Positions 8,949 through 62,883 of a stretch of 64,000 nucleotides of DNA are shown here, piece after piece. The stretch lies in the NCBI RefSeq assembly GCF_036507355.1, contig NZ_AP027877.1; one strand, 5' to 3'. The stretch's first letter is position 1; each line of letters begins with the position of its first letter. A program made the translations under genes and the position numbers. Below the pieces are notes generated by a model that was not told where the DNA came from, did no database searches, and saw only the letters and a list, made by a program, of their open reading frames with translations. The DNA is from Escherichia coli (GTDB lineage: Bacteria > Pseudomonadota > Gammaproteobacteria > Enterobacterales > Enterobacteriaceae).

Positions 8949-8952
8949 TCTT

Positions 8953-11578: not shown

Positions 11579-11628
11579 ATAGTGTTCCCTTTTATTTATT
11601 GTTCCGGCTAATTGTTATTTAATTCAGC

Positions 11629-12555: not shown

Positions 12556-12754
12556 CTGTTTTTCACCTCTCCGTTGCGTTTATCCCGGATATAGATGAGT
12601 TGTTCTTTTAAGAGCTTCCGGCTCTGCATGATGATGTCCTTATATTTGGTATTCCTGAACAAGGAAGAGTAACAACGGGCGGGACGCGAGGGGAATAAAT
12701 GATTTCTGAAAAGTCCGGTAGCGGAACATTACCGCCACCGGGAGAATTTGCACG

Positions 12755-13582: not shown

Positions 13583-13686
13583 ACGTTCCTCCTTTATATG
13601 AACTCACCGGAGCAGGCTCCGGTGAGGTGTTGTGAACTTAAGTCTGGACGAAATGCCCGAAAACGAAAGTTTGAGGCGTAAAAAGC

Positions 13687-14850: not shown

Positions 14851-14986
14851 TACTTGCTCCCTTTGCTGGGCCAATATGAGGGCAGAGAACGATCTGCCTG
14901 ATGTTTTTCATTGTGATCGCCAGCGCCCTGGCTCTCAATGCTCATTTCTGCCAATGTCTTGCCTATTTCTCCAGAGTGCTGGAGAA

Positions 14987-35384: not shown

Positions 35385-36077
35385 CTAGTGATAACCACGC
35401 GCGGTCATAAAATCCGTAATCGCTTTTTCTGCATCAACCAACACCTGTTCCAGTGGCTGATTGGCATCGATATCAACCAGTTGTGCACCACCAAAGGTTA
35501 ACTGTGGCGTTATGGCAATCTTCCTCGCCAGCGATTCCCGTTTATGGTCGGGTTTACGCATGCAGGCAACTTCAAGGTCAACATTGAGTTTGATGACCAG
35601 ATCAGGCTTATGGCTCGCCATCCAGTGAAACGCTTTACGTTCCTGGCTTGCCAGCCATGAGACAAAACGACCACCTTCAACGTTAGGTGGGAACACCGTA
35701 CCATCGTAAGCGCCAGGAATTTGGTCCTGAGGATAACGGTCGGTTAGAACAATTAACCCGCGACGACGACAGGCAAGCATATGACGAAAGCGCAGTAAGC
35801 GACGGGCGACAAACGCTGTAATTACCAGCGCCGGAACTGGTCCAGGCAATTTTTTTGCTGTTTTCACCTGATTTCGTTCAATTGTTTTATGTAAGGATTT
35901 TCCCATCAACGGTAATTTTGTCACTGCACGACCGACATTTCCGGCCTGTTTTCCTAAATGAACTCTTTCGGCAGCACCATATTTTTCGACAACGGTAATG
36001 AGATGTTCACACACCGTTGACTTGCCTGAACCATCGCTACCAATAACGGCAATTAATGGAGGTGTTATTGACTGCAT
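35385..36077 (-). CDS. yghT: P-loop kinase-like protein YghT (thymidylate/nucleoside-kinase-like fold)
   Basis: 230-aa ORF; Walker [13 protein letters not shown]-type motif LTDRYPQ, C-terminal RKPDH motif shared with YghS/YghR. Confidence 0.85.
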
Positions 36078-36155
36078 GAATATATCCTTTAATTTAAATA
36101 TCCATTAAAAATATTTATTTGGTTAATATGTTTTTATGAAAGCGTAATTCAGGTC

Positions 36156-36183
36156 AATGTCACAATTAACCATTGTCACAATA
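36156..36183. promoter_or_regulatory. Candidate operator in the yghT/yghS divergent promoter region
   Basis: AATGTCACAATT and the perfect 11-bp palindrome ATTGT-C-ACAAT lie 16 bp apart in an AT-rich 173-bp divergent intergenic region. Confidence 0.3.
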
Positions 36184-36250
36184 AGGTTGAACGGATATTC
36201 TGAGCACGGACCACGTAATATTCAATACATTATTTGCTGCCGGGTTTTTC

Positions 36251-36964
36251 GTGAATCAACGTAATATGTCAATAATTAATTCCACGCCAGTGCGTGTTAT
36301 TGCCATTGTAGGATGTGATGGTTCAGGTAAATCGACCCTCACGGCAAGCCTGGTAAATGAACTGGCAGCAAGAATACCAGCAGAACACATTTATCTCGGG
36401 CAATCGTCCGGGCGAATTGGCGAATGGATTTCACAGCTCCCTGTTATTGGCGCACCTTTTGGGCGTTATCTGCGAAGTAAAGCGGCACATGTGCACGAAA
36501 AGCCCTCAACACCGCCTGGCAATATTACTGCGCTGGTTATCTATCTGCTTTCCTGCTGGCGGGCGTACAAGTTTCGCAAAATGTTGTGTAGAAGCCAGCA
36601 AGGCCATCTGCTCATCACCGACCGCTACCCGCAGGTTGAAGTGCCGGGTTTTCGCTTTGATGGCCCGCAATTGGCAAAAACCACGGGCGGTAACGGTTGG
36701 ATAAAAATGTTAAGGCAGCGCGAGTTGAAGCTGTACCAATGGATGGCGTCTTATTTACCCGTATTGTTGATTCGTCTTGGCATTGATGAACAAACCGCGT
36801 TTGCGCGTAAACCTGACCACCAACTGGCAGCGTTACAGGAAAAAATCGCCGTTACGCCGCAACTGACATTCAATGGCGCAAAGATCCTTGAACTGGATGG
36901 TCGGCAACCAGCCGATGAAATTCTGCAAGCGTCACTACGCGCAATTCACGCCGCGCTTTCCTGA
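36251..36964 (+). CDS. yghS: P-loop kinase-like protein YghS (paralog of YghT/YghR)
   Basis: 237-aa ORF; Walker A GCDGSGKST, ITDRYPQ, ARKPDH motifs. Confidence 0.85.
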   Translation: MNQRNMSIINSTPVRVIAIVGCDGSGKSTLTASLVNELAARIPAEHIYLGQSSGRIGEWISQLPVIGAPFGRYLRSKAAHVHEKPSTPPGNITALVIYLLSCWRAYKFRKMLCRSQQGHLLITDRYPQVEVPGFRFDGPQLAKTTGGNGWIKMLRQRELKLYQWMASYLPVLLIRLGIDEQTAFARKPDHQLAALQEKIAVTPQLTFNGAKILELDGRQPADEILQASLRAIHAALS

Positions 36965-36995
36965 TCACCAAAATGGATAGGGGATGATTTAACGA

Positions 36996-37754
36996 ATGGA
37001 TGCACTACAAACACAAACTGTTATTAGTACAACCGCGCCGCAGCCCAACTACATTCCGGGGCTGATTGCGGTGGTCGGGTGTGATGGCACCGGTAAATCC
37101 ACACTGACCACCGACCTGGTGAAATCGCTGCAACAACACTGGCAAACCGAGCGGCGCTATCTGGGGCTGCTCTCCGGCGAAGACGGCGACAAAATCAAAC
37201 GATTGCCGTTGGTTGGCGTCTGGCTGGAACGGCGACTGGCGGCCAAATCCTCGAAAACCCAAAGCATGAAAACCAAATCTCCGGCGCTATGGGCGGCGGT
37301 GATTATGTACTGCTTCTCGCTGCGAAGAATGGCGAATCTACGCAAGGTTCAGCGACTGGCGCAAAGTGGCGTTCTGGTGGTCAGCGATCGCTTCCCGCAG
37401 GCTGAAATTTCGGGCTTTTATTATGATGGACCGGGGATTGGCGTCGAACGTGCGACCGGGAAAATAAGCATGTTTCTGGCGCAGCGCGAACGGCGTTTAT
37501 ACCAACAAATGGCGCAATATCGCCCGGAATTAATTATTCGCTTGGGCATTGATATTGAGACTGCCATCTCCCGCAAGCCTGACCATGACTATGCCGAGCT
37601 GCAGGACAAAATCGGTGTTATGTCGACGATTGGCTATAACGGCACAAAAATTCTTGAGATTGATTCCAGAGCGCCCTACAGCGAAGTGCTGGAACAGGCA
37701 CAGAAGGCGGTTTCTCTGGTTGCCATCGTTTCTGACCGCCGAAGTTTAACTTAA
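36996..37754 (+). CDS. yghR: P-loop kinase-like protein YghR (paralog of YghT/YghS)
   Basis: 252-aa ORF; Walker A GCDGTGKST, VSDRFPQ, SRKPDH motifs. Confidence 0.85.
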   Translation: MDALQTQTVISTTAPQPNYIPGLIAVVGCDGTGKSTLTTDLVKSLQQHWQTERRYLGLLSGEDGDKIKRLPLVGVWLERRLAAKSSKTQSMKTKSPALWAAVIMYCFSLRRMANLRKVQRLAQSGVLVVSDRFPQAEISGFYYDGPGIGVERATGKISMFLAQRERRLYQQMAQYRPELIIRLGIDIETAISRKPDHDYAELQDKIGVMSTIGYNGTKILEIDSRAPYSEVLEQAQKAVSLVAIVSDRRSLT

Positions 37755-37799: not shown

Positions 37800-39149
37800 T
37801 TGGCGGGTTTTAACATCAAACATTGGTTTGCAGATGGCGCGTTTCGCACCATTATTCGCAATAGCGCCTGGTTAGGCTCCAGTAATGTCGTGAGCGCCTT
37901 GCTGGGTCTGTTGGCGCTCTCGTGTGCCGGTAAAGGGATGACGCCCGCCATGTTTGGCGTACTGGTGATTGTGCAATCGTACGCCAAGTCGATCAGCGAT
38001 TTTATTAAGTTTCAGACATGGCAGCTGGTGGTTCAGTACGGAACACCAGCATTAACCAACAATAATCCGCAGCAATTTCGCAATGTCGTCTCATTTTCCT
38101 TCTCGCTGGATATCGTCAGCGGCGCGGTGGCGATTGTCGGCGGCATTGCCTTACTGCCATTCCTTTCCCATTCATTAGGTCTGGATGACCAAAGCTTTTG
38201 GCTGGCGGCGCTGTATTGCACGTTCATTCCTTCAATGGCTTCCTCCACGCCGACCGGCATTCTGCGTGCGGTAGATCGCTTTGATTTGATTGCTGTACAG
38301 CAGGCGACGAAACCTTTTCTGCGCGCAGCGGGGAGCGTCGCAGCCTGGTATTTTGACTTTGGTTTTGCGGGTTTTGTTATTGCCTGGTACGTGTCGAATC
38401 TGGTTGGCGGCACCATGTACTGGTGGTTTGCCGCGCACGAATTACGCCGCAGAAATATCCATAACGCCTTCAAATTGAATCTGTTTGAGTCTGCCCGACA
38501 CATTAAAGGCGCGTGGAGTTTTGTCTGGTCAACCAACATTGCCCACTCCATCTGGTCGGCGCGTAACTCGTGCAGCACAGTGTTGGTGGGGATCGTGTTA
38601 GGACCCGCTGCCGCCGGGTTATTTAAAATCGCCATGACATTCTTCGATGCCGCCGGAACGCCAGCGGGTTTGCTGGGTAAAAGTTTTTACCCAGAGGTGA
38701 TGCGTTTAGATCCGCGCACCACCAGACCGTGGTTGTTAGGCGTGAAGTCCGGTTTACTGGCGGGCGGAATCGGTATTCTGGTGGCGCTCGCGGTGTTGAT
38801 CGTCGGCAAGCCGCTCATTTCGCTGGTGTTTGGCGTTAAGTATCTCGAAGCGTATGACCTGATTCAGGTGATGCTGGGCGCAATTGTGATCTCGATGCTG
38901 GGTTTCCCGCAGGAGTCATTGCTATTGATGGCGGGAAAACAGCGCGCTTTTCTCGTGGCGCAAACCATCGCCTCAATCGGCTACATCGTATTGCTGTTCA
39001 TGTTCTGTCATCTGTTTGGTGTGCTGGGAGCAGCGTTTGCTTACTTCGGTGGGCAATGTCTGGACGTGGCGCTCTCGTTAATTCCAACCTTAAAGGCATT
39101 TTTTCAGCGCCATTCCTTGCTTTATAACGCAGCCGGAGAGAAATCCTGA
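37800..39149 (+). CDS. yghQ: Polysaccharide-biosynthesis/MOP-flippase-family inner membrane protein YghQ (apparently full length)
   Basis: 449-codon ORF from a TTG at 37800 (true start may be an internal ATG); highly hydrophobic multi-TM protein; I recall K-12 YghQ as shorter. Confidence 0.8.
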   Translation: MAGFNIKHWFADGAFRTIIRNSAWLGSSNVVSALLGLLALSCAGKGMTPAMFGVLVIVQSYAKSISDFIKFQTWQLVVQYGTPALTNNNPQQFRNVVSFSFSLDIVSGAVAIVGGIALLPFLSHSLGLDDQSFWLAALYCTFIPSMASSTPTGILRAVDRFDLIAVQQATKPFLRAAGSVAAWYFDFGFAGFVIAWYVSNLVGGTMYWWFAAHELRRRNIHNAFKLNLFESARHIKGAWSFVWSTNIAHSIWSARNSCSTVLVGIVLGPAAAGLFKIAMTFFDAAGTPAGLLGKSFYPEVMRLDPRTTRPWLLGVKSGLLAGGIGILVALAVLIVGKPLISLVFGVKYLEAYDLIQVMLGAIVISMLGFPQESLLLMAGKQRAFLVAQTIASIGYIVLLFMFCHLFGVLGAAFAYFGGQCLDVALSLIPTLKAFFQRHSLLYNAAGEKS

Positions 39150-39973
39150 TGATGAGAAAATATTTCCCGCTTGAGGCGAGCGAGCATCTATTTGTTGCGA
39201 TTGAGGAAGATGATGTTGTTGATGCCCAGGTCAGTTTGCCGCCGACTATCGCACTAAGTTGTACCACCGAAATCATCCATGATAATTACGCGTTATGCCT
39301 GCAATTCTGGCTCAATGGCGTTGATCGTCAGGAATTACTTCGTTTAATTCGCAAACAAGCCAAAGGCGATGAGCTGACGACAGACGAGCGTAAACAGTTT
39401 AAATACATGCGAGCGCGCTACAAGCATCTACGTTTTGCACAACGGCTGTATTTAAAAAAGCATCAGGCCAGATTTTTATTCGGCAAAACGACCGTTTTTC
39501 TGGGACGTTTTCAGGACGGATTTCGTAACGGTAAGAAAAATATTGTGTCGTATTACGGCAACCTGTTACGAATTTATTTAAGCTCTCCGGTCTGGTCGTT
39601 GGTGAACTATTCATTACGCCATAGCCAGTTAGAAAGCGTAAGCGGTTTTATTGCCTATCGGCAAAAGCAAATGCATACCCTGAAAGAGATTATTGCCAAA
39701 CCGCGACTAACCGGCAGGGAATTTCATGATGTGCGAAAAATCATCAGCCAGCAGGTTTCTTATTACGACACCTTAAGATCGCTTGATCCTGAAAATAAAG
39801 AGGCGTTACAGATTTCCCGTTTCCTCGCCGCCATTAATGGCCTGATGGGGGATCAACACGACGACATGGTGGCGGATGATATGGAAAACCGCCAGTCGTA
39901 TGATGCACCGGTGGCGCTGGATAGCGATATTCGCCAGCGCTTAGAGCTGCTGATTTCGCGTTTTCCGCTATAA
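39149..39973 (+). CDS. Hypothetical basic protein (274 aa), no family recognised
   Basis: ATG overlaps the yghQ stop (TGATG), implying translational coupling; ORF MMRKYFPLEASEHLFVAIEEDDVV...; within a same-strand gene array. Confidence 0.65.
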   Translation: MMRKYFPLEASEHLFVAIEEDDVVDAQVSLPPTIALSCTTEIIHDNYALCLQFWLNGVDRQELLRLIRKQAKGDELTTDERKQFKYMRARYKHLRFAQRLYLKKHQARFLFGKTTVFLGRFQDGFRNGKKNIVSYYGNLLRIYLSSPVWSLVNYSLRHSQLESVSGFIAYRQKQMHTLKEIIAKPRLTGREFHDVRKIISQQVSYYDTLRSLDPENKEALQISRFLAAINGLMGDQHDDMVADDMENRQSYDAPVALDSDIRQRLELLISRFPL

Positions 39974-39981
39974 CCGGAGCA

Positions 39982-40545
39982 ATGATGTCATCTCGTTTGA
40001 TTATTGCGCTGATTATCATGCTCTTAGCCCCGGGTGTGCAGGCACACAATTTCGTCACTGGCAAAACGGTTACCCCTGTTTATATTCAGGAAGGCGGCGA
40101 GCTGCTTCTGAATAGCGACGACGAAATTCACTACCAAAAGTGGAACAGCACACAATTGGCGGGAAAAGTCCGAATTATCCAGTATATCGCCGGGCGTAAG
40201 TCGGCGAAGAAAAAGAACTCACTGTTAATTAAAGCGGTTGAAGCGGCAAACTTTCCGCAGGATCGTTTTCAGCCCACCACCATTGTGAACACCGATGATG
40301 CCATCTTTGGTACTGGCTATTTTGTTGTTGGCAAAATCGAAAAAAATAAACGCCACTATCCGTGGGCGCAATTCGTTATTGACGGCAATGGACAGGGACG
40401 CGTTGCCTGGCGCTTGCCGGAGCAGAGTTCAACCATTCTGGTGCTGAATAAAGCCGGGCAAATTCAGTGGGCAAAGGACGGCAGCCTGACGCCGGAAGAG
40501 GTAGATCATGTTATTGCGCTGGCGCAGAAACTGATCAATGAATAA
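39982..40545 (+). CDS. YtfJ-family periplasmic protein (paralog of E. coli YtfJ)
   Basis: 187-aa ORF with signal peptide; HNFVTGKTVTPVYIQEGGELLLNSDDEIHYQKWNSTQLAGKVRIIQYIAGR closely parallels my recollection of the YtfJ sequence. Confidence 0.7.
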   Translation: MMSSRLIIALIIMLLAPGVQAHNFVTGKTVTPVYIQEGGELLLNSDDEIHYQKWNSTQLAGKVRIIQYIAGRKSAKKKNSLLIKAVEAANFPQDRFQPTTIVNTDDAIFGTGYFVVGKIEKNKRHYPWAQFVIDGNGQGRVAWRLPEQSSTILVLNKAGQIQWAKDGSLTPEEVDHVIALAQKLINE

Positions 40546-40575
40546 AAAATTCAAAGGATTGAGGGCGTTAGTGAG

Positions 40576-41646
40576 ATGAAGCTGGTTGAACACTACATCA
40601 TGCGTGGTACGCGCCGTCTGGTGCTGATTATCGTCGGTTTTCTGATCTTTATTTTCGCCAGCTACTCCGCACAGCGTTATCTGACCGAAGCGGCAAATGG
40701 GACATTAGCTCTTGATGTTGTGCTGGATATCGTTTTCTACAAAGTGCTGATTGCACTGGAGATGTTGTTACCTGTTGGTCTGTATGTGTCAGTTGGCGTG
40801 ACGCTAGGGCAGATGTATACCGACTCGGAAATTACCGCTATCTCTGCGGCGGGGGGCAGTCCGGGACGCTTGTACAAAGCCGTTCTTTATCTGGCGATAC
40901 CGCTAAGTATTTTTGTCACCCTTCTGTCGATGTATGGTCGTCCGTGGGCTTATGCGCAGATTTATCAACTGGAGCAGCAGTCGCAGTCGGAGCTGGATGT
41001 TCGCCAGTTGCGGGCAAAGAAATTTAACACTAACGATAACGGACGAATGATCCTTTCGCAGACGGTTGATCAGGATAATAATCGCCTGACTGACGCGCTG
41101 ATTTATACTTCTACTGCCAATCGAACCCGCATTTTCCGCGCCCGTTCGGTTGATGTGGTTGACCCATCACCCGAGAAACCGACCGTTATGTTGCACAACG
41201 GCACTGCCTATCTTCTCGATCATCAGGGGCGTGACGACAACGAACAGATCTACCGTAATCTGCAATTACATCTGAATCCGCTGGATCAAAGCCCTAACGT
41301 CAAACGCAAAGCGAAATCGGTCACGGAGCTGGCGCGCTCCGTCTTTCCAGCCGATCATGCCGAACTGCAATGGCGACAAAGCCGTGGCCTGACCGCATTG
41401 TTGATGGCGCTGCTGGCCATTTCATTAAGTCGGGTAAAACCGCGGCAAGGGCGATTTTCAACATTATTGCCACTGACGTTGCTGTTTATTGCCATTTTTT
41501 ATGGCGGCGACGTCTGCCGTACGCTGGTGGCTAACGGCGCGATTCCCCTCATTCCTGGTTTGTGGTTAGTACCCGGACTCATGCTAATGGGCCTGCTGAT
41601 GCTGGTCGCACGCGACTTCTCTTTGCTGCAGAAATTTTCCCGATGA
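40576..41646 (+). CDS. LptF/LptG-family (YjgP/YjgQ) permease paralog 1
   Basis: 356-aa ORF; N-terminal TM segments; region LEMLLPVGLYVSVGVTLGQMYTDSEITAISAAG parallels the LptF motif [29 protein letters not shown] recalled from memory. Confidence 0.8.
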   Translation: MKLVEHYIMRGTRRLVLIIVGFLIFIFASYSAQRYLTEAANGTLALDVVLDIVFYKVLIALEMLLPVGLYVSVGVTLGQMYTDSEITAISAAGGSPGRLYKAVLYLAIPLSIFVTLLSMYGRPWAYAQIYQLEQQSQSELDVRQLRAKKFNTNDNGRMILSQTVDQDNNRLTDALIYTSTANRTRIFRARSVDVVDPSPEKPTVMLHNGTAYLLDHQGRDDNEQIYRNLQLHLNPLDQSPNVKRKAKSVTELARSVFPADHAELQWRQSRGLTALLMALLAISLSRVKPRQGRFSTLLPLTLLFIAIFYGGDVCRTLVANGAIPLIPGLWLVPGLMLMGLLMLVARDFSLLQKFSR

Positions 41647-42722
41647 ATGTTTTCAGTCGCTATTTAATCCGTCATCTCTTTCTCGGTTTTGCCGCCGCCG
41701 CAGGGCTATTGCTGCCGCTTTTTACCACCTTCAACCTGATTAACGAACTGGATGATGTCAGCCCGGGCGGTTATCGCTGGACTCAGGCGGTGCTGGTGGT
41801 GCTAATGACCTTACCGCGCACACTTGTCGAACTTTCGCCATTTATCGCCTTATTGGGAGGGATTGTCGGCCTGGGGCAGCTATCGAAAAACAGTGAGCTT
41901 ACCGCCATTCGCAGCACGGGGTTTTCTATCTTCCGTATTGCACTGGTGGCGCTGGTTGCCGGGATATTGTGGACTGTTTCGTTAGGCGCGATAGATGAGC
42001 GGGTAGCGTCGCCATTGCAGCAACAGGCGCTGCAAATCAAATCGACCGCCACCGCGTTGGGGGAGGACGATGACATTACCGGCAATATGCTGTGGGCCAG
42101 GCGCGGCAATGAATTTGTGACGGTGAAATCGCTGAATGAGCAGGGCCAGCCTGTGGGCGTGGAGATTTTTCATTATCGTGACGATCTCTCGCTCGAATCC
42201 TACATTTATGCACGCAGTGCCACCATTGAAGACGACAAAACGTGGATCCTGCATGGTGTGAATCATAAAAAATGGCTGAATGGCAAAGAAACGCTGGAAA
42301 CATTAGATAATCTTGCCTGGCAATCGGCCTTCACCAGTATGGATCTTGAAGAGCTATCGATGCCGGGGAATACTTTTTCTGTCCGTCAGCTTAATCATTA
42401 CATCCATTATTTGCAGGAAACCGGGCAACCCAGCAGCGAATACCGCCTTGCACTGTGGGAAAAACTGGGGCAACCCATCCTGACCCTGGCGATGATTTTG
42501 CTGGCTGTGCCGTTTACCTTTAGCGCCCCGCGCTCGCCAGGGATGGGTAGCCGTCTCGCTGTAGGCGTCATCGTTGGCTTACTCACCTGGATCAGCTATC
42601 AAATCATGGTCAATTTGGGATTGCTATTTGCGTTAAGCGCACCTGTTACCGCGCTCGGTTTACCGATAGCGTTTGTGCTGGTGGCGTTGAGCCTGGTGTA
42701 TTGGTATGACAGACAACATTAA
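41643..42722 (+). CDS. LptF/LptG-family (YjgP/YjgQ) permease paralog 2
   Basis: ORF 41562-42722 trimmed to ATG 41643 (MNVFSRYLIRHLFLGF..., 359 aa) overlapping the upstream stop (ATGA); same architecture as paralog 1. Confidence 0.8.
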   Translation: MNVFSRYLIRHLFLGFAAAAGLLLPLFTTFNLINELDDVSPGGYRWTQAVLVVLMTLPRTLVELSPFIALLGGIVGLGQLSKNSELTAIRSTGFSIFRIALVALVAGILWTVSLGAIDERVASPLQQQALQIKSTATALGEDDDITGNMLWARRGNEFVTVKSLNEQGQPVGVEIFHYRDDLSLESYIYARSATIEDDKTWILHGVNHKKWLNGKETLETLDNLAWQSAFTSMDLEELSMPGNTFSVRQLNHYIHYLQETGQPSSEYRLALWEKLGQPILTLAMILLAVPFTFSAPRSPGMGSRLAVGVIVGLLTWISYQIMVNLGLLFALSAPVTALGLPIAFVLVALSLVYWYDRQH

Positions 42723-42723
42723 A

Positions 42724-42750
42724 CCCGCCGTGGCGCAACACCACGGCGGG
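42724..42750. terminator. Hairpin between convergent operons (putative bidirectional terminator)
   Basis: CCCGCCGTGG-CGCAACA-CCACGGCGGG perfect 10-bp stem in the 34-bp gap between the two convergent stops. Confidence 0.5.
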
Positions 42751-42756
42751 CTCACA

Positions 42757-43929
42757 TTACTGCTTCAGAGTAGCAAATGCCTGAATGATGGCATCGATTT
42801 GCTCACGACTGTGGGCAGCGTTTACGCTACAGCGCAGCAGCGTGATGCCTGCAGGCGCGGCAGGTGGCAGGATAAGATTCACATAAACGCCCAGCGAAAT
42901 AAGCTCGCGCCAGATGCGTAAACCTTCCTCTTTCGAACCGATTATTACCGGCACTACCGGACTAATATGTGAACTTAACTCATAACTCAGCTTTTGCAGC
43001 CCGTCATACAGATGGTTGGCATTATCCATCAGTTTTTGCCGCAACTCTGGTTGAGTGGCAATGGTTCTTAACGACGAGCGCACGGTTGCAATGCAGGAAG
43101 GAGAAGGGGAGGCGGTAAAAATATACGGACGACTGCCGTAGCGCAGCACTTCCATCGCTTCCGAACCCACGGCAAAACCACCAATAGAAGCCAGGCTTTT
43201 ACTGAAGGTGCCAACGATAATATCCACATCATCTTCAACGCCAACGGCTTCAACCAGCCCGCGCCCCGTTGCGCCTAACACGCCAAACGAGTGAGCTTCA
43301 TCGACAATTAAATATCCGCCGAGACGACGTTTGATATCAACAATTTCCGCCAGCGGCGCAACGTCACCGAGCATACTGTAGATGCCCTCAACGATGATAA
43401 TCGCCTCTTTCGCCCGTTCACCGAGGCGAACCATGCGCCGTTCCAGATCTTTAGCATCGTTATGGCGGAAACGAATAATTTCCGCGCCACCGAGAGAACA
43501 GGCGTCATAAATACTGGCGTGGCTGTCAGCATCCAGTAACACCACGGCGTTATGGTCGGCAAGTGCGCTGATGACGCCTAAATTAGCGGTATAACCGGTT
43601 GAAAAAACGATAGCGGTAGGGCGATTGAAAAACTCAGCAATCTCTTTCTCTAACGCCAGATGCGGCGCATAACTGCCGTTTGCCATACGAGAACCGGTGG
43701 TGCCGGTGCCTTGGGCCGCTAACGCTGCCTGACCTTCGGCGATGGCATCATGATTGAAGGTTAATCCGAGATAATTATTGGTCCCGGCCAGAATCACTTT
43801 TTTATTGCCGATCCGGCCTTCGGTGGCGGAATACACTTCATCAATACAGGTGCCAAACGGTGTTAACCCGTTGTCACTAAATTGCAGACGCTCGCCAGCA
43901 AGGCGCGCATATTTATCGTATAGCCCCAT
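42757..43929 (-). CDS. PLP-dependent alpha-oxoamine synthase, serine-palmitoyltransferase-like
   Basis: 390-aa ORF; DEAHSFGVLG and GTFSKSLASIGGF (PLP-lysine motif of the AONS/SPT/KBL family); ATG overlaps the stop of the upstream ACP gene. Confidence 0.85.
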   Translation of the reverse strand: MGLYDKYARLAGERLQFSDNGLTPFGTCIDEVYSATEGRIGNKKVILAGTNNYLGLTFNHDAIAEGQAALAAQGTGTTGSRMANGSYAPHLALEKEIAEFFNRPTAIVFSTGYTANLGVISALADHNAVVLLDADSHASIYDACSLGGAEIIRFRHNDAKDLERRMVRLGERAKEAIIIVEGIYSMLGDVAPLAEIVDIKRRLGGYLIVDEAHSFGVLGATGRGLVEAVGVEDDVDIIVGTFSKSLASIGGFAVGSEAMEVLRYGSRPYIFTASPSPSCIATVRSSLRTIATQPELRQKLMDNANHLYDGLQKLSYELSSHISPVVPVIIGSKEEGLRIWRELISLGVYVNLILPPAAPAGITLLRCSVNAAHSREQIDAIIQAFATLKQ

Positions 43930-44177
43930 TATTTATTCTCCAGCCATGGAAGTAGAGTTTCCATTAATTGCGCAGGGGTTTTGACATCCAGCAGAATATT
44001 AATAGGAATGGAAATATCGAATCTGTCTTCCAGCATCATTAAGAGATCCATCACTTTGATCGACTCCAGGCCAAGATCGTTGACGAGATCGCTGTCGGGC
44101 TTAATTTCCACACCGTTTTCGACCAAATCCTGTAAACAGGAAAGGATGTAATCCATTACTATTTCACGATTTACCAT
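43929..44177 (-). CDS. Acyl carrier protein (dedicated, non-AcpP)
   Basis: 82-aa acidic ORF with DLGLESIKVMDL phosphopantetheine-attachment-type serine motif. Confidence 0.8.
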   Translation of the reverse strand: MVNREIVMDYILSCLQDLVENGVEIKPDSDLVNDLGLESIKVMDLLMMLEDRFDISIPINILLDVKTPAQLMETLLPWLENK

Positions 44178-44208
44178 AGAAACGTTAACACACCTTTAAA
44201 CAAGACAA

Positions 44209-45123
44209 TCAAAATAGCCCGTTGCGTAATGCGTGTTCCAGGCTAATCCCGGGAAACCAATTAATATCTTCAGAAATACGGTTATTACTTGCCGACCAGT
44301 CGGCGTGGGTTAATTCACGAATTTTCGAGCGGGTCAGCATAGGTTCTTTACCTGCCAGGCGACTCAACGCGGTACTGATATCCGCAAGGCAGGTGAGTAC
44401 CGGCAGAGGAATGCCAACCATTCGCACGGAACCACAACGGGCGTCGGCGGCAAGTTGCTGTACGCGTTGCCAGTCATAGCCGCCAGCGACGCCATCGCAT
44501 AATTCATAGGTTTGCGTCTGTACAGTTTCGGCGCTTAACCACTGACCCACTGCTTGCGCAAAATCGGTGACATGCAGGAAAGAGAGCTGTGTATCTGGTG
44601 CACCAAGTCGTGGCAGCAGGCCGCGCAGCATCCAGTCAAACAGCGGTTTTAACTCTTTATCGCCGGGACCATACACGGCTGTCGGGCGAAAAACGCCCAG
44701 CGTAATTTCGTCAGCCATTGCCGTCAGCCGTTGTTCGGCGACGTGTTTGGAATTTGCGTACCAGGAGAGCTCGGGATGGCGCGCCGCCAGCGAAGAGATA
44801 AACAGAAAACGTTGGCAAAAGCCGCTCTCTTTTGCTGCTTGCATCAGGCGCAGGCTGCCGTCAACGTTACAGTGGGTAAAAATCTCTTCTTTGTGTCCGC
44901 GCACTTGCCCGGCGCAATGGACCACCGCGCTGGCTCCGGCAACCAGTTCGCTAAGCGAATGTGTATCTTCCAGCGAACCGCGCACCCAAGTAAGATTATC
45001 ATTGACGTGAGCGCGGGCAGTACGCGTCAATGCGCGAACGTGAAAGCCGCGGGCGAGCAGGTTATCGATAATATATTTACCGATAAAACCGGTAGCGCCC
45101 GTCACCGCGACAGTTTGATTCAT
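44209..45123 (-). CDS. NAD(P)-dependent epimerase/dehydratase-family (extended SDR) reductase
   Basis: 304-aa ORF; N-terminal VTGATGFIGKYI Rossmann motif; YANSK (YxxxK) catalytic motif; start overlaps the upstream stop (ATGA). Confidence 0.8.
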   Translation of the reverse strand: MNQTVAVTGATGFIGKYIIDNLLARGFHVRALTRTARAHVNDNLTWVRGSLEDTHSLSELVAGASAVVHCAGQVRGHKEEIFTHCNVDGSLRLMQAAKESGFCQRFLFISSLAARHPELSWYANSKHVAEQRLTAMADEITLGVFRPTAVYGPGDKELKPLFDWMLRGLLPRLGAPDTQLSFLHVTDFAQAVGQWLSAETVQTQTYELCDGVAGGYDWQRVQQLAADARCGSVRMVGIPLPVLTCLADISTALSRLAGKEPMLTRSKIRELTHADWSASNNRISEDINWFPGISLEHALRNGLF

Positions 45124-46841
45124 GCCAGGGATTCCTGCACATGAAGGCTTGCAGCATAAGCCTTCTGATAACGTTTTTTCGCTTCCGCACGGGCAGGCTT
45201 GCCGGAGGACGTTCGGGGAATGCTGTGGGGCGGCAACAGATCGATAGCCGCGGTCACGCCAAATTCGCTTTGGATCCGTGCTGCCAGCGCGTGGATAAGC
45301 TGCCCGCGACGTTCTTCATCGCTGATCCGACACTGGATCTGCAAAATGATTTTTTCCTGGACGGTAACAAAAGCAATCGCATCGCCAGAATGAATTTCCG
45401 GTTCCTGTTCCGCTATATATTCAATATCCTGCGGCCAGATATTACGGCCACGAATAATAATCAGATCTTTAATGCGTCCGGTGACATACAGATAACCATC
45501 CAGCAGATAACCGAGGTCGCCAGTGTCTAACCAGCCCGTCGCGGCAATCTCGTCTTGCGAAGCCTGGTCGCCAAAGTAACCGCTCATCAGACTGGGACCG
45601 GAGATGCAAATATGGCCTACCACACGTTCCGCGACCGGCATACCTGCTTGATTGCGGATTTCAATACCATGTTCCGGCAACGCTTTGCCGCAGTTGACGA
45701 AAGTCGATACGGCGCGTGTCTCTGCACCCGGCGCGACGGCTTTACCCTGATATTCGAGGATGTCGCGATCCACTTCGTTAACTACAACCCCGGAGGCTTC
45801 ATCAGAGAAGCTGACAGCCAGCGCATTTTCTGCCAGGCCGTAGCACGGCATGAAAGTTTTATCGTCAAAGTTAACCTGACGGAAACATTCAGCGAATTGA
45901 TGGAGTTGTTCTGCGGAGATGGGTTCTGCACCAATACCAGCGACGCGCCAGCAGGAAAGATCCAGTTCAGCGAGATCTTTTTCATTCACGCGGCGCTGGC
46001 ACAATTCATAGCCAAACGGCGGCGCAACGGAAACGGTGCCGCGATTTTTACTGATCAATTTAAGCCATTGCAGAGGACGCATGGCAAAATCCTGAGTGCG
46101 CAAATAATCTACTGAAAGTTGCGTGGCGACGGGGGTCAGGAGAAAGCCGACCAGTCCCATATCATGGTAGAAAGGCAGCCAGGAGACGCAGCGGTCGCCA
46201 GGGCGTAATTTAATGCCGTCGTGGCTTATAGCACGTAGATTAGCCATCACTTCGCGATGGGTGATAATGACGCCACGGGGAAAACGGGTGCTGCCGGAGG
46301 TGTACTGGAGGTAGGCGATATCGTTCGGAACTGGACGCTGGAGCGCAACATCGGCTTCCGGTAATGCCTTAAACCAGGCGTGGCTTAAAACATGTAATTC
46401 GGGGTTGTCATGCGTCGCGGCATTGACCAGTGGCAACCACTCATCACCAGTGATAATGGCTGCGGGCTGGCAACTTGTCAGTAAACCCTGCAATTTGGCG
46501 CTCCAGGAATCCCGCTGACCAACGCCCATTGGAATCGCCAACGGGACGGCGACTAAGCCGGCATACTGGCAGGCAAAAAAAGCCTCTACGAACCCGCTAC
46601 TTGTTTCGGCAATCAGTGCCACGCGATCGCCTTTTTTCAGGTTCAGCGATAACAACCGCTTCGCACCAGCTTCGGCACGCGCTTTTAACGTCTGATATTC
46701 CAGTTGATCTTCAAGTTGGCAACGTCTGTCATAAAAATTCATTCCAGCGCTACTCAGAGCGGCGTAGTCCAAAGCATCAACCAGCGTTGGAAAATCGGCA
46801 TAGCGTATAGGTAGGGAATGCGTAAAGATTTTATTAGACAT
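45120..46841 (-). CDS. Fatty acyl-AMP ligase / acyl-ACP synthetase (adenylate-forming enzyme)
   Basis: ORF 45120-46850 (GTG) trimmed to ATG 46839-46841 (MSNKIFTHSL...); AMP-binding core motifs YTSGSTRFPRGV and TGDLGY...GRIKDLIIIRGRNI. Confidence 0.85.
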   Translation of the reverse strand: MSNKIFTHSLPIRYADFPTLVDALDYAALSSAGMNFYDRRCQLEDQLEYQTLKARAEAGAKRLLSLNLKKGDRVALIAETSSGFVEAFFACQYAGLVAVPLAIPMGVGQRDSWSAKLQGLLTSCQPAAIITGDEWLPLVNAATHDNPELHVLSHAWFKALPEADVALQRPVPNDIAYLQYTSGSTRFPRGVIITHREVMANLRAISHDGIKLRPGDRCVSWLPFYHDMGLVGFLLTPVATQLSVDYLRTQDFAMRPLQWLKLISKNRGTVSVAPPFGYELCQRRVNEKDLAELDLSCWRVAGIGAEPISAEQLHQFAECFRQVNFDDKTFMPCYGLAENALAVSFSDEASGVVVNEVDRDILEYQGKAVAPGAETRAVSTFVNCGKALPEHGIEIRNQAGMPVAERVVGHICISGPSLMSGYFGDQASQDEIAATGWLDTGDLGYLLDGYLYVTGRIKDLIIIRGRNIWPQDIEYIAEQEPEIHSGDAIAFVTVQEKIILQIQCRISDEERRGQLIHALAARIQSEFGVTAAIDLLPPHSIPRTSSGKPARAEAKKRYQKAYAASLHVQESLA

Positions 46842-46850
46842 ATACACCAC

Positions 46851-47211
46851 GAAAAAATTGGATATCCAAAATAAAATGACAATAATGCGGTGGATTATAT
46901 AGGCATAAAAGATAAATGAGATAGTATTTTCATCGGTGTGAAAATGAACATTGATTTAAATAATGAGTTTAAGTTTTTTGTTTTTATTGTGAATGATATT
47001 TAATTTATGAATATATTAAGAAGAAGCCTTGTCCGGTCGCCTTAAATCGACAAAAGGCATTGTGGCGCTTCTGCGTAGTCGCTGACCCTATCGTAATCAT
47101 TAATAAATACTATTTATTCGTCGTTTGTATTCATTGGGTTGATTATTAAGATGCCGTTCGTTGCTGTTGCAACCTGTTTTTCACCGTTAATTATTTGTTA
47201 TCCACAGAACT
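46851..47211. promoter_or_regulatory. AT-rich divergent promoter region between the FAAL operon and yghO
   Basis: 361-bp noncoding stretch, visibly AT-rich with A/T tracts (e.g. TTTAAATAATGAGTTTAAGTTTTTTGTTTTTATTGTGAATGATATTTAATTTATGAATATATTAAG), flanked by divergent starts. Confidence 0.4.
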
Positions 47212-48354
47212 ATGGAATGCGATCTGCTGATGATCAAAATTGAAAAAGTAATTAATAAAAATGACCTTAAGGCATTTATTGCTTTTCCGTCATCACTTTA
47301 TCCCGATGATCCAAACTGGATACCCCCTTTATTCATTGAACGCAGCGAGCATTTGTCTGCGAAGAATCCGGGGACGGACCATATCATCTGGCAGGCGTGG
47401 GTGGCAAAAAAAGCGGGGCAGATAGTTGGGCGTATTACCGCGCAAATAGATACCTTACACCGCGAGTGTTACGGCGAAGATACCGGTCATTTCGGCATGA
47501 TTGACGCCATTGATGATCCGCAGGTTTTTGCCGCGTTGTTTGGCGCAGCGGAAGCGTGGTTGAAGTCACAAGGTGCAAGTAAGATCAGCGGGCCTTTCAG
47601 CCTGAATATCAATCAGGAAAGCGGATTACTGATTGAAGGTTTTGACACACCACCCTGTGCGATGATGCCACACGGCAAACCGTGGTATGCCGCGCATATT
47701 GAACAACTGGGTTATCACAAAGGCATTGATTTACTGGCGTGGTGGATGCAGCGAACCGATCTCACTTTCTCTCCGGCGCTAAAAAAACTGATGGTTCAGG
47801 TGCGCAAAAAGGTGACCATTCGCTGCATCAATCGCCAGCGGTTTGCCGAAGAGATGCAGATCCTGCGTGAGATTTTCAACTCTGGCTGGCAGCACAACTG
47901 GGGATTTGTGCCGTTTACCGAACATGAATTCGCGACCATGGGCGACCAACTTAAATATCTGGTGCCGGACGATATGATCTACATCGCTGAGATTGATTCT
48001 GCACCTTGCGCGTTTATTGTCGGCTTGCCAAACATCAACGAGGCGATTGCCGATCTGAACGGATCGCTCTTTCCCTTCGGCTGGGCAAAATTGCTGTGGC
48101 GTTTGAAAGTCAGCGGTGTGCGAACTGCGCGAGTACCGCTGATGGGCGTGCGCGACGAGTATCAGTTCAGCCGCATCGGCCCGGTGATTGCGCTGTTATT
48201 GATTGAAGCCTTACGCGATCCGTTTGCCCGCCGGAAGATCGATGCGCTGGAGATGTCATGGATCCTCGAAACCAATACAGGCATGAATAACATGCTGGAA
48301 CGCATTGGGGCGGAGCCGTACAAGCGTTACCGATTGTATGAAAAGCAGATTTAA
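47212..48354 (+). CDS. yghO: YghO-family protein, putative GNAT-like N-acyltransferase, intact
   Basis: 380-aa ORF MECDLLMIKIEKVINKNDLKAFIAFPSSLYPDDPNWIPPLF...; recognised as YghO family, which I recall as a disrupted pseudogene in K-12; acyltransferase assignment is from family knowledge, not from motifs I can verify. Confidence 0.7.
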   Translation: MECDLLMIKIEKVINKNDLKAFIAFPSSLYPDDPNWIPPLFIERSEHLSAKNPGTDHIIWQAWVAKKAGQIVGRITAQIDTLHRECYGEDTGHFGMIDAIDDPQVFAALFGAAEAWLKSQGASKISGPFSLNINQESGLLIEGFDTPPCAMMPHGKPWYAAHIEQLGYHKGIDLLAWWMQRTDLTFSPALKKLMVQVRKKVTIRCINRQRFAEEMQILREIFNSGWQHNWGFVPFTEHEFATMGDQLKYLVPDDMIYIAEIDSAPCAFIVGLPNINEAIADLNGSLFPFGWAKLLWRLKVSGVRTARVPLMGVRDEYQFSRIGPVIALLLIEALRDPFARRKIDALEMSWILETNTGMNNMLERIGAEPYKRYRLYEKQI

Positions 48355-58455: not shown

Positions 58456-59324
58456 GGTACGCCTTTATCCGTGACAACACCTGTTGCTGGCCTGTTCGCC
58501 TGCTCTGTCGGGTGCTGGATGTTCATCCCAGTGGTTTTTACGCCTGGCTTCAGCAGCCGCATTCACAACGCCATCAGGCAGACCTGAGGCTGACAGGGCA
58601 GATTAAACAGTTCTGGCTGGAATCGGGATGCGTCTATGGTTATCGCAAAATCCATCTGGATCTGCGGGACAGCGGGCAACAGTGCGGAGTGAACAGAGTC
58701 TGGCGACTGATGAAACGTGTCGGGATAAAGGCTCAGGTCGGATACCGGAGCCCGCGGGCACGTAAAGGCGAGGCCAGTATCGTGTCGCCCAACAGGCTCC
58801 AGCGACAGTTCAATCCGGATGCTCCGGATAAGCGTTGGGTAACGGACATAACCTACATCAGGACCCACGAAGGCTGGCTGTATCTTGCCGTGGTTGTTGA
58901 TCTGTTCTCACGCAAAATTATCGGCTGGTCCATGCAATCCCGGATGACAAAGGACATTGTCCTGAACGCACTGCTGATGGCTGTATGGCGCCGTAATCCC
59001 CAAAAACAGGTGCTGGTTCATTCGGATCAGGGCAGTCAGTACACAAGCCATGAGTGGCAGTCGTTCCTGAAATCACACGGCCTGGAGGGCAGCATGAGCC
59101 GTCGCGGTAACTGCCATGATAATGCGGTTGCAGAAAGCTTTTTCCAGTTGTTGAAACGCGAACGGATAAAGAAAAAGATCTACGGAACGCGGGAAGAAGC
59201 CCGCAGCGATATTTTTGATTACATCGAAATGTTTTATAACAGTAAGCGTCGGCATGGTTCCAGCGATCAGATGTCACCGACAGAATATGAAAACCAGTAT
59301 TATCAACGGCTCGGAAGTGTCTAG
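58416..59324 (+). CDS. IS3-family transposase OrfB (DDE integrase core), expressed as OrfAB fusion by -1 frameshift
   Basis: -1 frame is open from the slippery site; contains WVTDITYIRTHEGWLYLAVVVDLFSRKIIGWSM, HSDQGSQYTS and CHDNAVAESFF DDE-core motifs; the first in-frame ATG is at 58512. Confidence 0.85.
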   Translation, partial: KKSRGVLRKAVRLRYAFIRDNTCCWPVRLLCRVLDVHPSGFYAWLQQPHSQRHQADLRLTGQIKQFWLESGCVYGYRKIHLDLRDSGQQCGVNRVWRLMKRVGIKAQVGYRSPRARKGEASIVSPNRLQRQFNPDAPDKRWVTDITYIRTHEGWLYLAVVVDLFSRKIIGWSMQSRMTKDIVLNALLMAVWRRNPQKQVLVHSDQGSQYTSHEWQSFLKSHGLEGSMSRRGNCHDNAVAESFFQLLKRERIKKKIYGTREEARSDIFDYIEMFYNSKRRHGSSDQMSPTEYENQYYQRLGSV

Positions 59325-59339
59325 ATTACCCGTGGCGAT

Positions 59340-59555
59340 TCAGTCATCAGTAATTACGCTGTCATCCAGTTTCGCATAACAGATACTGTCATCACCGGCT
59401 TCAATATAGCTGGAAAAATTCTCACTGATGAAGCGGTAGAAAAGGGCACCGAGTACATACTGTTTAAAATCCCATCCATCTACGGAGCCTCTGACATCAT
59501 TGGCAATGGCCCAGATTTGGCGGTGTAGCTCTGCACGCTGCTGAAGGCTTGTCAT
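59340..59555 (-). pseudogene. hsdM: Truncated type I restriction-modification methyltransferase (hsdM) N-terminal remnant
   Basis: 71-codon ORF MTSLQQRAELHRQIWAIANDVRGSVDGWDFKQYVLGALFYRFISENFSSYIEAGDDSI... matches the N-terminus of type IC HsdM (EcoR124-like) as I recall it, then runs directly into the IS right end. Confidence 0.7.
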
Positions 59556-59758
59556 TTTGTATCCTGTTGTATGATTCTTAAGTACTGTTATTGGCCCGAT
59601 TTTATCGTAATTTCATATTGATGACAGGCTTTGTATGTCATACGTTGCACTGAGAGTTCGTTTGCCCGGTTGTGTAGGCAGCGCTCTTTCAGCCAGGTCA
59701 GTAGAAACGTTGCGCTGACGATAAATACTGAAGCCCCAATACCATCGGGGCTGAACGT

Positions 59759-61636: not shown

Positions 61637-61697
61637 ATGTTATATTAGCTGGCCTATTTTAATTTATTGCGTGTCGGTAGTACAGTCTTTGCACAAA

Positions 61698-62027
61698 CTA
61701 ATTTATGCAATGGAAAAGCTGACGGCTCGGTTTGTGTTTTTCATTCGGGTAGACTCGCATTGCGGATGCACAAAGTGATGAAACCTGTCTTGCTATATTT
61801 TTACCGAAGTTAACAAGTAGGCCGTGCTTTATTTTTTCACCCTCTGCCCTGATGCTGATGACAAAGCTGAACTGATATACGATTACCTCAATGAGGTCAT
61901 TGCCAAATGTTATGATGGCGGCGTTGTTTATTTCATATTCATAATCCCTCAGGTCAGTGTTAAGTCTTGCTGTTGCATTTACAAGTGCGTATTCTTTATC
62001 GATAATCATAACTTTCTCACTTATCAT
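61698..62027 (-). CDS. Hypothetical small protein (109 aa)
   Basis: ORF with ATG start between the WYL regulator and the DUF262/DUF1524 gene on the same strand; no recognisable motif. Confidence 0.45.
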   Translation of the reverse strand: MISEKVMIIDKEYALVNATARLNTDLRDYEYEINNAAIITFGNDLIEVIVYQFSFVISIRAEGEKIKHGLLVNFGKNIARQVSSLCASAMRVYPNEKHKPSRQLFHCIN

Positions 62028-62067
62028 GTTAATGTGATTTAATCATCACTAATAATATGTTGTGATT

Positions 62068-62781
62068 TTAATTACGATTATTCGTCTGTTTACTCCCGTA
62101 ATGCATTATCTGATGAATAATGTTCATGTGGGGTAAGGCTTCCATAAAGTCAGACTGTTCAATCAGCGAAATGAGTGTGTTATCGATCTCAAACGTTGTA
62201 TCCGGTAATACCTCAACCAGCCTGATTCGGGACAGGGAAATAACGAACACGCCCGATGACGTACATCCGGCAAGAAACCACTCCGCATGGCTGCAAAGCA
62301 GACGATAGGGATGAACGGTATGGCTGACGTTTTCGTCGGTTCTGATACGCACCTTGGTCTGGTTAAGTATGGCGAGCGTTAGTCTGCTGAAATCACCGAA
62401 CAGCGTGGGTTTCTGGCGCGGCTCCGGGAGCATAATCCGGTAGGGTGAAGGGTGCTCCCCGTCAAGCAGAAGGCTCAGCAGTTTGGCATCCATCGCGGGT
62501 AACAGACGGTCAAGATGCAGCAGTCTCGCCAGTATCTTCATATCTCGTTCCGTGCGGCGACGAAAGTAATGTGAGGCAAGCTGATACACGCCGTTGCTCT
62601 GTTCAATATCAAGGTAGGTCAGACGGACGTTGAAATCCCGCCGCAGCGTTCGCGTTGTCACTCCAAATTCTTCTGCCAGCGTCCCGATATGCAGCTTTTC
62701 ACCCTGAAACAAACGGCTCAGGATGATGGAAAGGCGGGTTGCCAGTCTGTCATGTTCGTTTTCTTGTGTTATCAGCGTCAT
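62068..62781 (-). CDS. WYL-domain transcriptional regulator (HTH + WYL), BrxR/CapW-like
   Basis: 237-aa ORF; N-terminal HTH (IGTLAEEFGVTTRTLRRDF); central W[YF]L-type region (HPYRLLCSHAEWFLAGCTSSGVFVISLSRIRLVEVL). Confidence 0.7.
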   Translation of the reverse strand: MTLITQENEHDRLATRLSIILSRLFQGEKLHIGTLAEEFGVTTRTLRRDFNVRLTYLDIEQSNGVYQLASHYFRRRTERDMKILARLLHLDRLLPAMDAKLLSLLLDGEHPSPYRIMLPEPRQKPTLFGDFSRLTLAILNQTKVRIRTDENVSHTVHPYRLLCSHAEWFLAGCTSSGVFVISLSRIRLVEVLPDTTFEIDNTLISLIEQSDFMEALPHMNIIHQIMHYGSKQTNNRN

Positions 62782-62883
62782 ACATCATTTCCGAATTTAG
62801 CCGGGAAATGATGCCAGCAGTAGCGGACAGGATTTGTCCACCCTCTGAAGTTTTTTAAAGTCTGAATACCTTAAATGTAAGTG

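Follow-up and report, generated by a model that had tools for sequence, protein, structure and literature searches.

An additional LptF–LptG permease pair in the sphingolipid locus of Escherichia coli, the probable membrane half of a second Lpt-type extractor

In this work we analysed a window of 64 kb of the Escherichia coli chromosome (contig NZ_AP027877.1; flanked by hyb/gss/pitB genes and the glc operon), which carries two permease genes related to lptF and lptG, here called lptF2 and lptG2, between a gene for a secreted YtfJ-family protein (ytfJ2) and a sphingolipid operon. Our observations indicate that the products of lptF2 and lptG2 are probably the membrane part of an additional Lpt-type ATP-binding cassette (ABC) extractor, one dedicated to the sphingolipid that the neighbouring genes produce. 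A dedicated exporter for the lipid of the neighbouring operon had been proposed from the sequence of the window alone (the original prediction), and at the sequence level this proposal is supported by the family assignment of the two permeases and by their co-occurrence with sphingolipid genes. The core of the finding is correct but already known, as the concept has appeared in publications on Caulobacter and a preprint (Uchendu, Isom and Klein, bioRxiv 10.64898/2026.04.12.717747) draws the E. coli locus. New here are the predicted cysteine-free thioredoxin fold of YtfJ2 and its restriction to Enterobacterales, the CHAD fold of a 274-amino-acid (AA) protein of the locus, and the presence of A, S or G in LptF2 at the position of LptF residue R212.

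Family assignment of LptF2 and LptG2 and linkage to sphingolipid genes

The original prediction described two LptF/LptG-like open reading frames (ORFs), and family profiles, alignments with solved structures and transmembrane (TM) layout all agree with this description. LptF2 scores 318 bits against the NCBIfam LptF model TIGR04407 (cut-off 230) and 65 bits against the LptG model, and LptG2 scores 305 bits against the LptG model TIGR04408 (cut-off 240) and 82 bits against the LptF model. Pfam PF03739 is matched over the full length of the model by both proteins (E 9e-54 for LptF2, E 1e-68 for LptG2). LptF2 aligns full-length to the solved LptF chains of E. coli (6mhu_F, E 1e-25) and Pseudomonas aeruginosa (5x5y, 9e-32), as LptG2 does to the solved LptG chains of the same species (6mhu_G, E 1e-39; 5x5y, 2e-41). 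The hydropathy profiles of both show three TM segments, about 160 hydrophilic residues and another two to three TM segments, a pattern identical to that of K-12 LptF and LptG. A placement of the two ORFs outside the YjgP/YjgQ family was looked for, and both were found to be full-length members of it.

Although the list of ORFs starts lptG2 at a GTG (41562), the conserved start, which is also the one annotated in RefSeq, is the ATG at 41643, and it overlaps the lptF2 stop codon by 4 nt (ATGA). A lptG2 homolog adjoins lptF2 in 79 of the 80 related loci described below, with the same 4-nt ATGA overlap in 66 of these 79, in agreement with the translational coupling that had been proposed. This conserved F2–G2 pairing, together with the ATGA overlap, argues for a dedicated heterodimer. 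Comparison with E. whittamii and Pseudocitrobacter gives ratios of nonsynonymous to synonymous substitution rates (dN/dS) of 0.07–0.10 for lptF2, 0.05–0.10 for lptG2 and 0.13–0.18 for ytfJ2; the three are therefore working genes under strong purifying selection.

The pair shares with the housekeeping E. coli LptB2FG(C) complex the protein families, the layout of six TM segments and a periplasmic domain of presumed beta-jellyroll type, the F-then-G gene order with an overlap, and the glutamate of the coupling helix. It differs from housekeeping LptFG in sequence (24–29% identity of LptF2 to K-12 LptF and 27–28% of LptG2 to K-12 LptG) and at R212 of LptF, an arginine replaced by A, S, G or T in LptF2. 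The housekeeping genes, which adjoin pepA in K-12, are also universal in the species, being present in 5425 of the 5426 complete genomes that make up our E. coli sample. These observations confirm that the canonical lptFG genes lie elsewhere in the chromosome and that lptF2 and lptG2 are paralogs of them.

RefSeq labels LptF2 and LptG2 as lipopolysaccharide (LPS) export permeases, and LPS export is also the name attached to the NCBIfam 'equivalog' models whose cut-offs they pass; for these two proteins the name is probably an over-annotation. If it were taken literally, the pair would be an alternative LPS extractor, for modified or stress LPS or as a backup of LptFG, and its adjacency to sphingolipid genes would be a legacy of co-transfer, an interpretation with which the retained coupling helices would also be compatible. 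We nevertheless consider it very unlikely: the housekeeping pair is universal whereas LptF2G2 is missing from 23% of the genomes, K-12 included, identity to LptF/G is as low as 24–29%, the pair stays with sphingolipid genes in all 47 informative close loci in spite of rearrangements, and the homologous pair of Caulobacter is essential only when an anionic sphingolipid is made.

The operon next to lptG2, called 'FAAL-AOS operon' in the original prediction, is the sphingolipid operon aasR-cerR-acpR-spt of the literature, beside which yghO (bCerS) lies. With the BL21 proteins ECD_02851 (AasR), ECD_02853 (AcpR) and ECD_02854 (Spt), a dedicated acyl carrier protein is acylated and 3-oxo-sphinganine is formed (Padilla-Gomez et al., PMC9386255); ECD_02852 was assigned as the reductase and yghO (ECD_02850) as the N-acyltransferase for the formation of dihydroceramide (PMC9386255). 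Linkage of the permease pair to these genes was analysed by scanning one genome per species with an alignment of eight LptF2 relatives, which gave 80 loci, each of which was searched with 13 proteins of the E. coli locus. Loci in which LptF2 identity is at least 48% (n = 51; Enterobacterales, Pseudomonas and Azotobacter) are called close, and those in which it is 31–43% (n = 29) are called distant.

At least four of the five genes spt, acpR, cerR, aasR and yghO lie within 10 kb of the pair in 47 of the 51 close loci. The other four (L015, L022, L030 and L040) are on contigs that end 0.4–5.5 kb upstream, on the side where relatives carry the sphingolipid genes. Some sphingolipid genes are retained in 21 of the 29 distant loci, including those of Salinisphaera, Thiotrichales, Desulfobacteraceae, Nitrosomonas and Acidobacteriota, and the linkage persists through repeated rearrangement of gene order. 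The co-occurrence with the operon that had been proposed as a check is thus observed, and the linkage in 47 of 51 close loci means that the case in which the genes never co-occur does not apply. A flippase is always near the pair, of MOP type in Enterobacterales and MsbA-like in Pseudomonas; in the Pseudomonas and Azotobacter loci, which carry LptF2G2 without YtfJ2, the MsbA-like exporter replaces the MOP flippase. The locus of Pseudomonas marginalis (L024, positions 287–14892) may be described as an example of gene content in this genus: a 676-AA MsbA-like fused ABC exporter is encoded beside spt, an IspD-like nucleotidyltransferase upstream of lptF2, and a YegS/DAGK-like lipid kinase, an unknown 321-AA protein and an OlsC/LpxO-like hydroxylase after lptG2. 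The YegS/DAGK-like kinase does not follow lptG2 in E. coli.

Within E. coli, the ytfJ2-lptF2-lptG2 stretch was found in 4149 of the 5426 complete genomes (4109 of them at a coverage of 80% or more) and the spt-aasR stretch in 4183, so that the LptF2/LptG2 pair is missing from about 23% of them, K-12 included. In K-12 (NC_000913.3, 3130146–3132408) an IS5 insertion sequence (IS; insH9) lies between a truncated yghQ (355 AA compared with 449) and yghO, and, relative to positions 37800–47200 of the window, the CHAD-fold gene, ytfJ2, lptF2, lptG2, spt, acpR, cerR and aasR are all gone. The standard laboratory strain lacks the system because of this IS5-associated deletion. In E. coli AR436 (NZ_CP029111.1, 3816729–3819146), ISVsa5, of the IS4 family, interrupts lptG2 and makes this strain a natural extractor knockout. 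The absence of the pair from about 23% of genomes and its disruption in AR436 indicate that LptF2 and LptG2 are not essential.

These two losses, and the fact that the literature searched reports no E. coli sphingolipid, might be taken to mean that the locus is a decaying and functionally silent remnant in E. coli. This is extremely improbable in view of the dN/dS values of 0.05–0.18 of ytfJ2, lptF2 and lptG2, of the coverage of at least 80% in 4109 genomes, and of the finding that AasR, AcpR and Spt of E. coli are active (PMC9386255).

Comparison with the systems of Caulobacter and Sphingomonas

Caulobacter LptF2 and LptG2 (CCNA_01214/CCNA_01213; CC_1156/CC_1155) likewise form an extra pair within a spt/acpR/cerR/aasR/bcerS locus, and in both Caulobacter and E. 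coli a putative flippase is adjacent and an lptB paralog is absent. A transport role was proposed for Caulobacter LptC2, LptF2 and LptG2 (Olea-Ozuna et al., 2024; PMC11324152). Caulobacter LptF2 and LptG2 were then reported to co-purify with each other and with LptB, and each of the two genes to be deletable only in the absence of spt or of the ceramide kinase gene cpgB, and hence to be needed when the anionic sphingolipid is made (10.64898/2026.04.12.717747). According to the same preprint, many sphingolipid loci of alpha- and gammaproteobacteria contain lptF2 and lptG2, lptC2 being restricted to Caulobacter, and its Figure 2B draws the locus of E. coli UTI89 as homologous. In Sphingomonas wittichii an LptFG pair (Swit_3905/3906) also lies within a sphingolipid gene region. 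This bacterium is free of LPS and has only that pair, whereas the E. coli pair is an extra one beside the pair dedicated to LPS. The S. wittichii genes support the idea that Lpt-type extractors can move sphingolipids.

The E. coli and Caulobacter loci differ in several respects. LptC2 is present in Caulobacter and absent from the E. coli locus; being restricted to Caulobacter, it is no general requirement for such a pair. Caulobacter has a CpgB-type kinase, in place of which E. coli has the P-loop kinases YghR, YghS and YghT, three paralogous dTMP-kinase-like proteins (35385–37754) that most sphingolipid loci of Enterobacterales encode; some Pseudomonas loci also have one or two copies of this type. 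We rejected the possibility that YghR/S/T are homologs of CpgB, which is a kinase of the DAGK/GGDG type. E. coli also has three accessory genes that are not described for Caulobacter, those for a MOP flippase, a CHAD-fold protein and YtfJ2. Finally, deletion of the Caulobacter pair is lethal when CPG2 is made, whereas AR436 carries an IS in lptG2 with spt annotated as intact.

Several observations weigh against a dedicated sphingolipid extractor in E. coli, or against a simple extension of the Caulobacter results to it. The first concerns sequence relatedness. The homologs from Azotobacter vinelandii and from Pseudomonas luteola share 52–54% identity with E. coli LptF2, and published BLAST comparisons of these homologs with CC_1156/CC_1155 gave 24–25% identity (E 1e-6 to 8e-14); the A. 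vinelandii homologs, which are 52–53% identical to E. coli LptF2, reach 24% (E 1e-6 and 9e-13) and are no closer to the Caulobacter pair than to canonical LptF/G. The link between E. coli and Caulobacter therefore appears to rest on synteny and family membership, the relatedness of the sequences themselves being weak. The second concerns phylogeny. A neighbour-joining tree built on MAFFT identities, with two canonical sequences per family, splits the F and G families cleanly, but nests both canonical gammaproteobacterial sequences among the distant F2/G2 proteins, and the sphingolipid-linked pairs are not monophyletic. The comparison with LptF and LptG that had been suggested thus upholds the distinction between the two subunits and does not resolve a sphingolipid-specific clade; a clean separation between sphingolipid-linked and canonical pairs was not obtained, and the tree counts neither for nor against one. 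An argument on the substrate from LptG residues K34, K40 and K41, which are N/D, D/E and P/A/S in LptG2, was dropped because canonical P. aeruginosa LptG lacks these lysines as well (A, N, S), which precludes any inference on the substrate from these positions.

The third point is that the head-group genes are unlike those of Caulobacter, so that the E. coli substrate is probably a different sphingolipid. In addition, neither a sphingolipid product of E. coli nor a transport phenotype or an LptB interaction is reported in the literature searched. Last, spt, acpR, cerR, aasR and yghO are still annotated as intact in AR436 in spite of the broken lptG2, so that E. coli, unlike Caulobacter, seems able to survive without the pair, at least when or if the locus is quiet; the E. 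coli sphingolipid locus may be silent under many conditions.

Energy source, bridge contacts and the role of YtfJ2

The original prediction noted that no LptB-like ATPase is encoded in the locus, which holds for the whole window: no ABC signature motif was found in any ORF of at least 100 AA in the six frames of the 64 kb, the only Walker A motifs are those of YghR/S/T, and a tblastn search of the 64 kb with K-12 LptA, LptB and LptC found nothing. Across the 80 loci, no LptA or LptC homolog and no stand-alone LptB-like gene lies beside the pair. The only LptB-like matches are about 30% identical and fall into two kinds: the nucleotide-binding domains (NBDs) of MsbA-like fused exporters, which adjoin spt in Pseudomonas, Azotobacter and two metagenome-assembled genomes (MAGs), and ABC genes that are unrelated and lie at a distance of about 9 kb.

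The glutamates by which LptF and LptG dock LptB are retained. The coupling-helix glutamates LptF E84 and LptG E88 are needed for LptB2FG to assemble and to function (PMC5082905), and they correspond to E85 of E. coli LptF2 and to E85 of LptG2. The coupling-helix glutamate is present in 80 of 80 LptF2 and 79 of 80 LptG2 sequences. The LptF2 coupling helix has 9 of 16 residues identical to K-12 LptF, compared with 24% identity overall, which ranks it fifth of 338 windows; the resemblance of the LptG2 helix to that of LptG is weaker (6 of 16). The conserved docking glutamates fit the use by LptF2–LptG2 of the single LptB of the cell. Borrowing of LptB in trans was one possibility raised in the original prediction, and it is what co-purification showed for the Caulobacter pair (10.64898/2026.04.12.717747). 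One may propose instead that the pair uses an ATPase other than LptB or another energy source encoded elsewhere, or that its subunits form mixed dimers with housekeeping LptF or LptG, since the locus encodes no ATPase, sharing of LptB has been shown only in Caulobacter, where the pair is very distant in sequence, and the LptG2 helix is just 6/16 identical to that of LptG. We think this distinctly unlikely, given the strict conservation of the coupling-helix glutamates, the rank of the LptF2 helix, the conserved F2–G2 pairing with its ATGA overlap, and the lack of a stand-alone NBD gene in the 80 loci.

The R212 position of LptF provides a further lead. The substitutions R212G, R212S and R212C of LptF allow E. 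coli to live without LptC, through an LptF–LptA connection (PMC4986956, PMC9972910). The corresponding motif is LNQGTRF in E. coli LptF, LHNGYRY in P. aeruginosa LptF and LHNGTAY in LptF2, where A211 occupies the position of the arginine. Among the 51 LptF2 sequences of Enterobacterales and Pseudomonas, this position is A in 27, S in 16, G in 4, T in 3 and P in 1. The presence of a residue other than arginine fits an extractor that lacks an LptC of its own, and we propose it as a lead only, the comparison being with two canonical sequences.

The protein encoded upstream of the pair is indeed a secreted member of the YtfJ family, as had been predicted. YtfJ2 scores 212 bits against NCBIfam YtfJ TIGR01626 (cut-off 151; family PF09695), starts with a hydrophobic signal sequence ending VQA|HNF, and has no cysteine. 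It resembles the housekeeping YtfJ of K-12 (b4216) in length, signal peptide and an invariant IAGRxSAKxxN motif, located at the site of the CxxC motif of redox family members, and the two proteins are 54% identical. Housekeeping ytfJ, however, stands alone between ytfI and ytfK, whereas YtfJ2 is found only in carriers of the sphingolipid locus. Sequence comparison of YtfJ2 with solved structures found nothing, and the YtfJ literature gives no function. The AlphaFold2 model of YtfJ2 (pLDDT 86) predicts an alpha/beta fold of thioredoxin/peroxiredoxin type, with thioredoxins, TlpA/CcmG proteins and peroxiredoxins as top Foldseek matches; YtfJ2 was therefore rejected as a bridge protein of LptC/LptA type, since the predicted fold is thioredoxin-like and contains no beta-jellyroll.

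YtfJ2 is restricted to Enterobacterales loci, where it nearly always accompanies the MOP flippase and the 274-AA protein; the loci of Pseudomonas and Azotobacter and the distant loci that carry LptF2G2 and spt do not encode it. In Escherichia, Hafnia and Pantoea, among others, its gene immediately precedes lptF2. In Sodalis it lies on the other side, downstream of spt, and in Rosenbergiella and several MAGs it is found on the opposite strand, following the genes for the flippase and the 274-AA protein. These lineage limits and this changing position suggest that YtfJ2 is a lineage-specific accessory of the pathway and not a general partner of the extractor. The earlier view of YtfJ2 as the periplasmic partner of the permeases is thus only partly upheld: the protein does belong with the sphingolipid locus in Enterobacterales, but its absence elsewhere, its shifting position and its thioredoxin fold do not fit a partnership with the permeases in general. 

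A stronger version of that view, in which soluble YtfJ2 would take over the lipid from LptF2G2, much as LolA receives its cargo from LolCDE, and serve as its carrier or acceptor so that the shared Lpt bridge is bypassed, seems to us unlikely. It would account for the fact that in Escherichia and most Enterobacterales ytfJ2 belongs to the gene string of lptF2 and lies 30 nt upstream of it, for the presence of YtfJ2 in every fully captured Enterobacterales locus, for its secretion and purifying selection, and for the lack of an LptA or LptC homolog in the locus. It does not account for the loci that carry LptF2G2 and spt but lack YtfJ2 (all those of Pseudomonas and Azotobacter and the distant ones), nor for the variable position of the gene in Sodalis, Rosenbergiella and others; moreover, the predicted thioredoxin/peroxiredoxin-like fold is no known lipid-carrier fold or Lpt beta-jellyroll, and the 54% identical housekeeping YtfJ is itself encoded far from lptFG. 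We therefore regard YtfJ2 as a periplasmic accessory specific to the Enterobacterales locus, and not as a core partner of the LptF2–LptG2 extractor.

Organization of the locus, proposed pathway and consequences

The features of the locus are listed in Table 1. The plus-strand string from yghS to lptG2 is tightly packed, the spacing ranging from a 4-nt overlap up to 45 nt; yghT, which is conserved in most Enterobacterales loci, lies upstream of this string and is divergent from it. Searches of Pfam and NCBIfam profiles gave no match for YghO, and none for the 274-AA protein. A scan for promoters and terminators found as many sites in the locus as in shuffled sequences, and only the hairpin at 42720–42754 stands out: it fills the 34-nt gap that separates the convergent lptG2 and spt genes and is likely to be a bidirectional terminator. 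A promoter-like site was found by the consensus scan at 36173–36201, near the start of yghS.

Table 1. Features of the sphingolipid locus in the 64-kb window
Feature	Position	Strand	Remarks
yghT	35385..36077	-	dTMP-kinase-like P-loop protein; RefSeq name; Walker A only, weak NCBIfam dTMP-kinase match
yghS	36251..36964	+	P-loop kinase-like; opens the plus-strand gene string
yghR	36996..37754	+	P-loop kinase-like protein
YghQ-type MOP-family flippase	37800..39149	+	Full-length, 449 AA; weak NCBIfam MOP match; multiple hydrophobic segments
274-AA soluble all-helical protein, CHAD-like fold	39149..39973	+	Start overlaps the flippase stop
ytfJ2, secreted YtfJ-family protein	39982..40545 (RefSeq start 39985)	+	186–187 AA
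lptF2, second LptF-type permease	40576..41646	+	356 AA
lptG2, second LptG-type permease	41643..42722	+	359 AA
Hairpin	42720..42754		16-bp stem (10 GC pairs), 3-nt loop, GC-rich; consensus scan
spt, serine palmitoyltransferase ('AOS' of the original prediction)	42757..43929	-	RefSeq; BL21 ortholog ECD_02854
acpR, specialised acyl carrier protein	43929..44177	-	PMC9386255
cerR/epi, NAD-dependent epimerase/dehydratase-family reductase	44209..45123	-	PMC9386255
aasR, acyl-AcpR synthetase ('FAAL' of the original prediction)	45120..46850	-	RefSeq start shorter; PMC9386255
yghO, N-acyltransferase, bCerS/aca ortholog	47212..48354	+	RefSeq name; aca/cerS assignment in PMC9386255

Farther along the window, positions 58512–63633 comprise a fragment of an IS3-family transposase and, after it, a minus-strand islet of low GC content (0.40) that lies beside the glc operon. 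The islet encodes a PADLOC HEC-05 protein (624 AA, 766 bits), a 108-AA unknown protein, a WYL-domain protein and a JukA-like protein, and looks like a small anti-phage defence islet unrelated to LptF2 and LptG2.

The gene content of the locus can be arranged in a pathway. AasR, AcpR, Spt, CerR and YghO/bCerS would produce a (dihydro)ceramide on the cytoplasmic side of the inner membrane, a head group would be attached, probably with the participation of the P-loop kinases YghR/S/T, and the full-length YghQ-type MOP flippase would move the lipid to the periplasmic leaflet. The LptF2–LptG2 heterodimer, powered by the only LptB dimer of the cell, would then extract the lipid from the inner membrane. 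For E. coli, we infer the substrate, the use of LptB and of the Lpt bridge, and the roles of the kinases and of the flippase.

A more elaborate proposal, doubtful as a whole, is that sphingolipid export in Enterobacterales was rebuilt around a lineage-specific module composed of the MOP flippase, the CHAD-fold protein, YtfJ2 and up to three P-loop kinases, which would imply an undescribed and probably heavily phosphorylated head group. LptF2, 'pre-suppressed' at the R212 position, would dock LptA directly in an LptC-independent six-protein machine, and this machine would compete with LptFG for LptB and for the bridge. The CHAD-fold protein of this module may be cytoplasmic and resemble proteins that bind polyphosphate or other anions.

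E. coli is the organism with the best-understood Lpt machine, and most of its natural isolates keep a second LptFG pair that K-12 has lost. What remains of value beyond the published concept lies in the specifics of E. coli, namely the product, YtfJ2, the CHAD-fold protein and independence from LptC. If LptB, and possibly LptA and LptDE, are shared between the two systems, antibiotics that target Lpt and LptB mutations would also hit sphingolipid export in clinical strains, and the two lipid pathways of the outer membrane could become coupled by competing for LptB.

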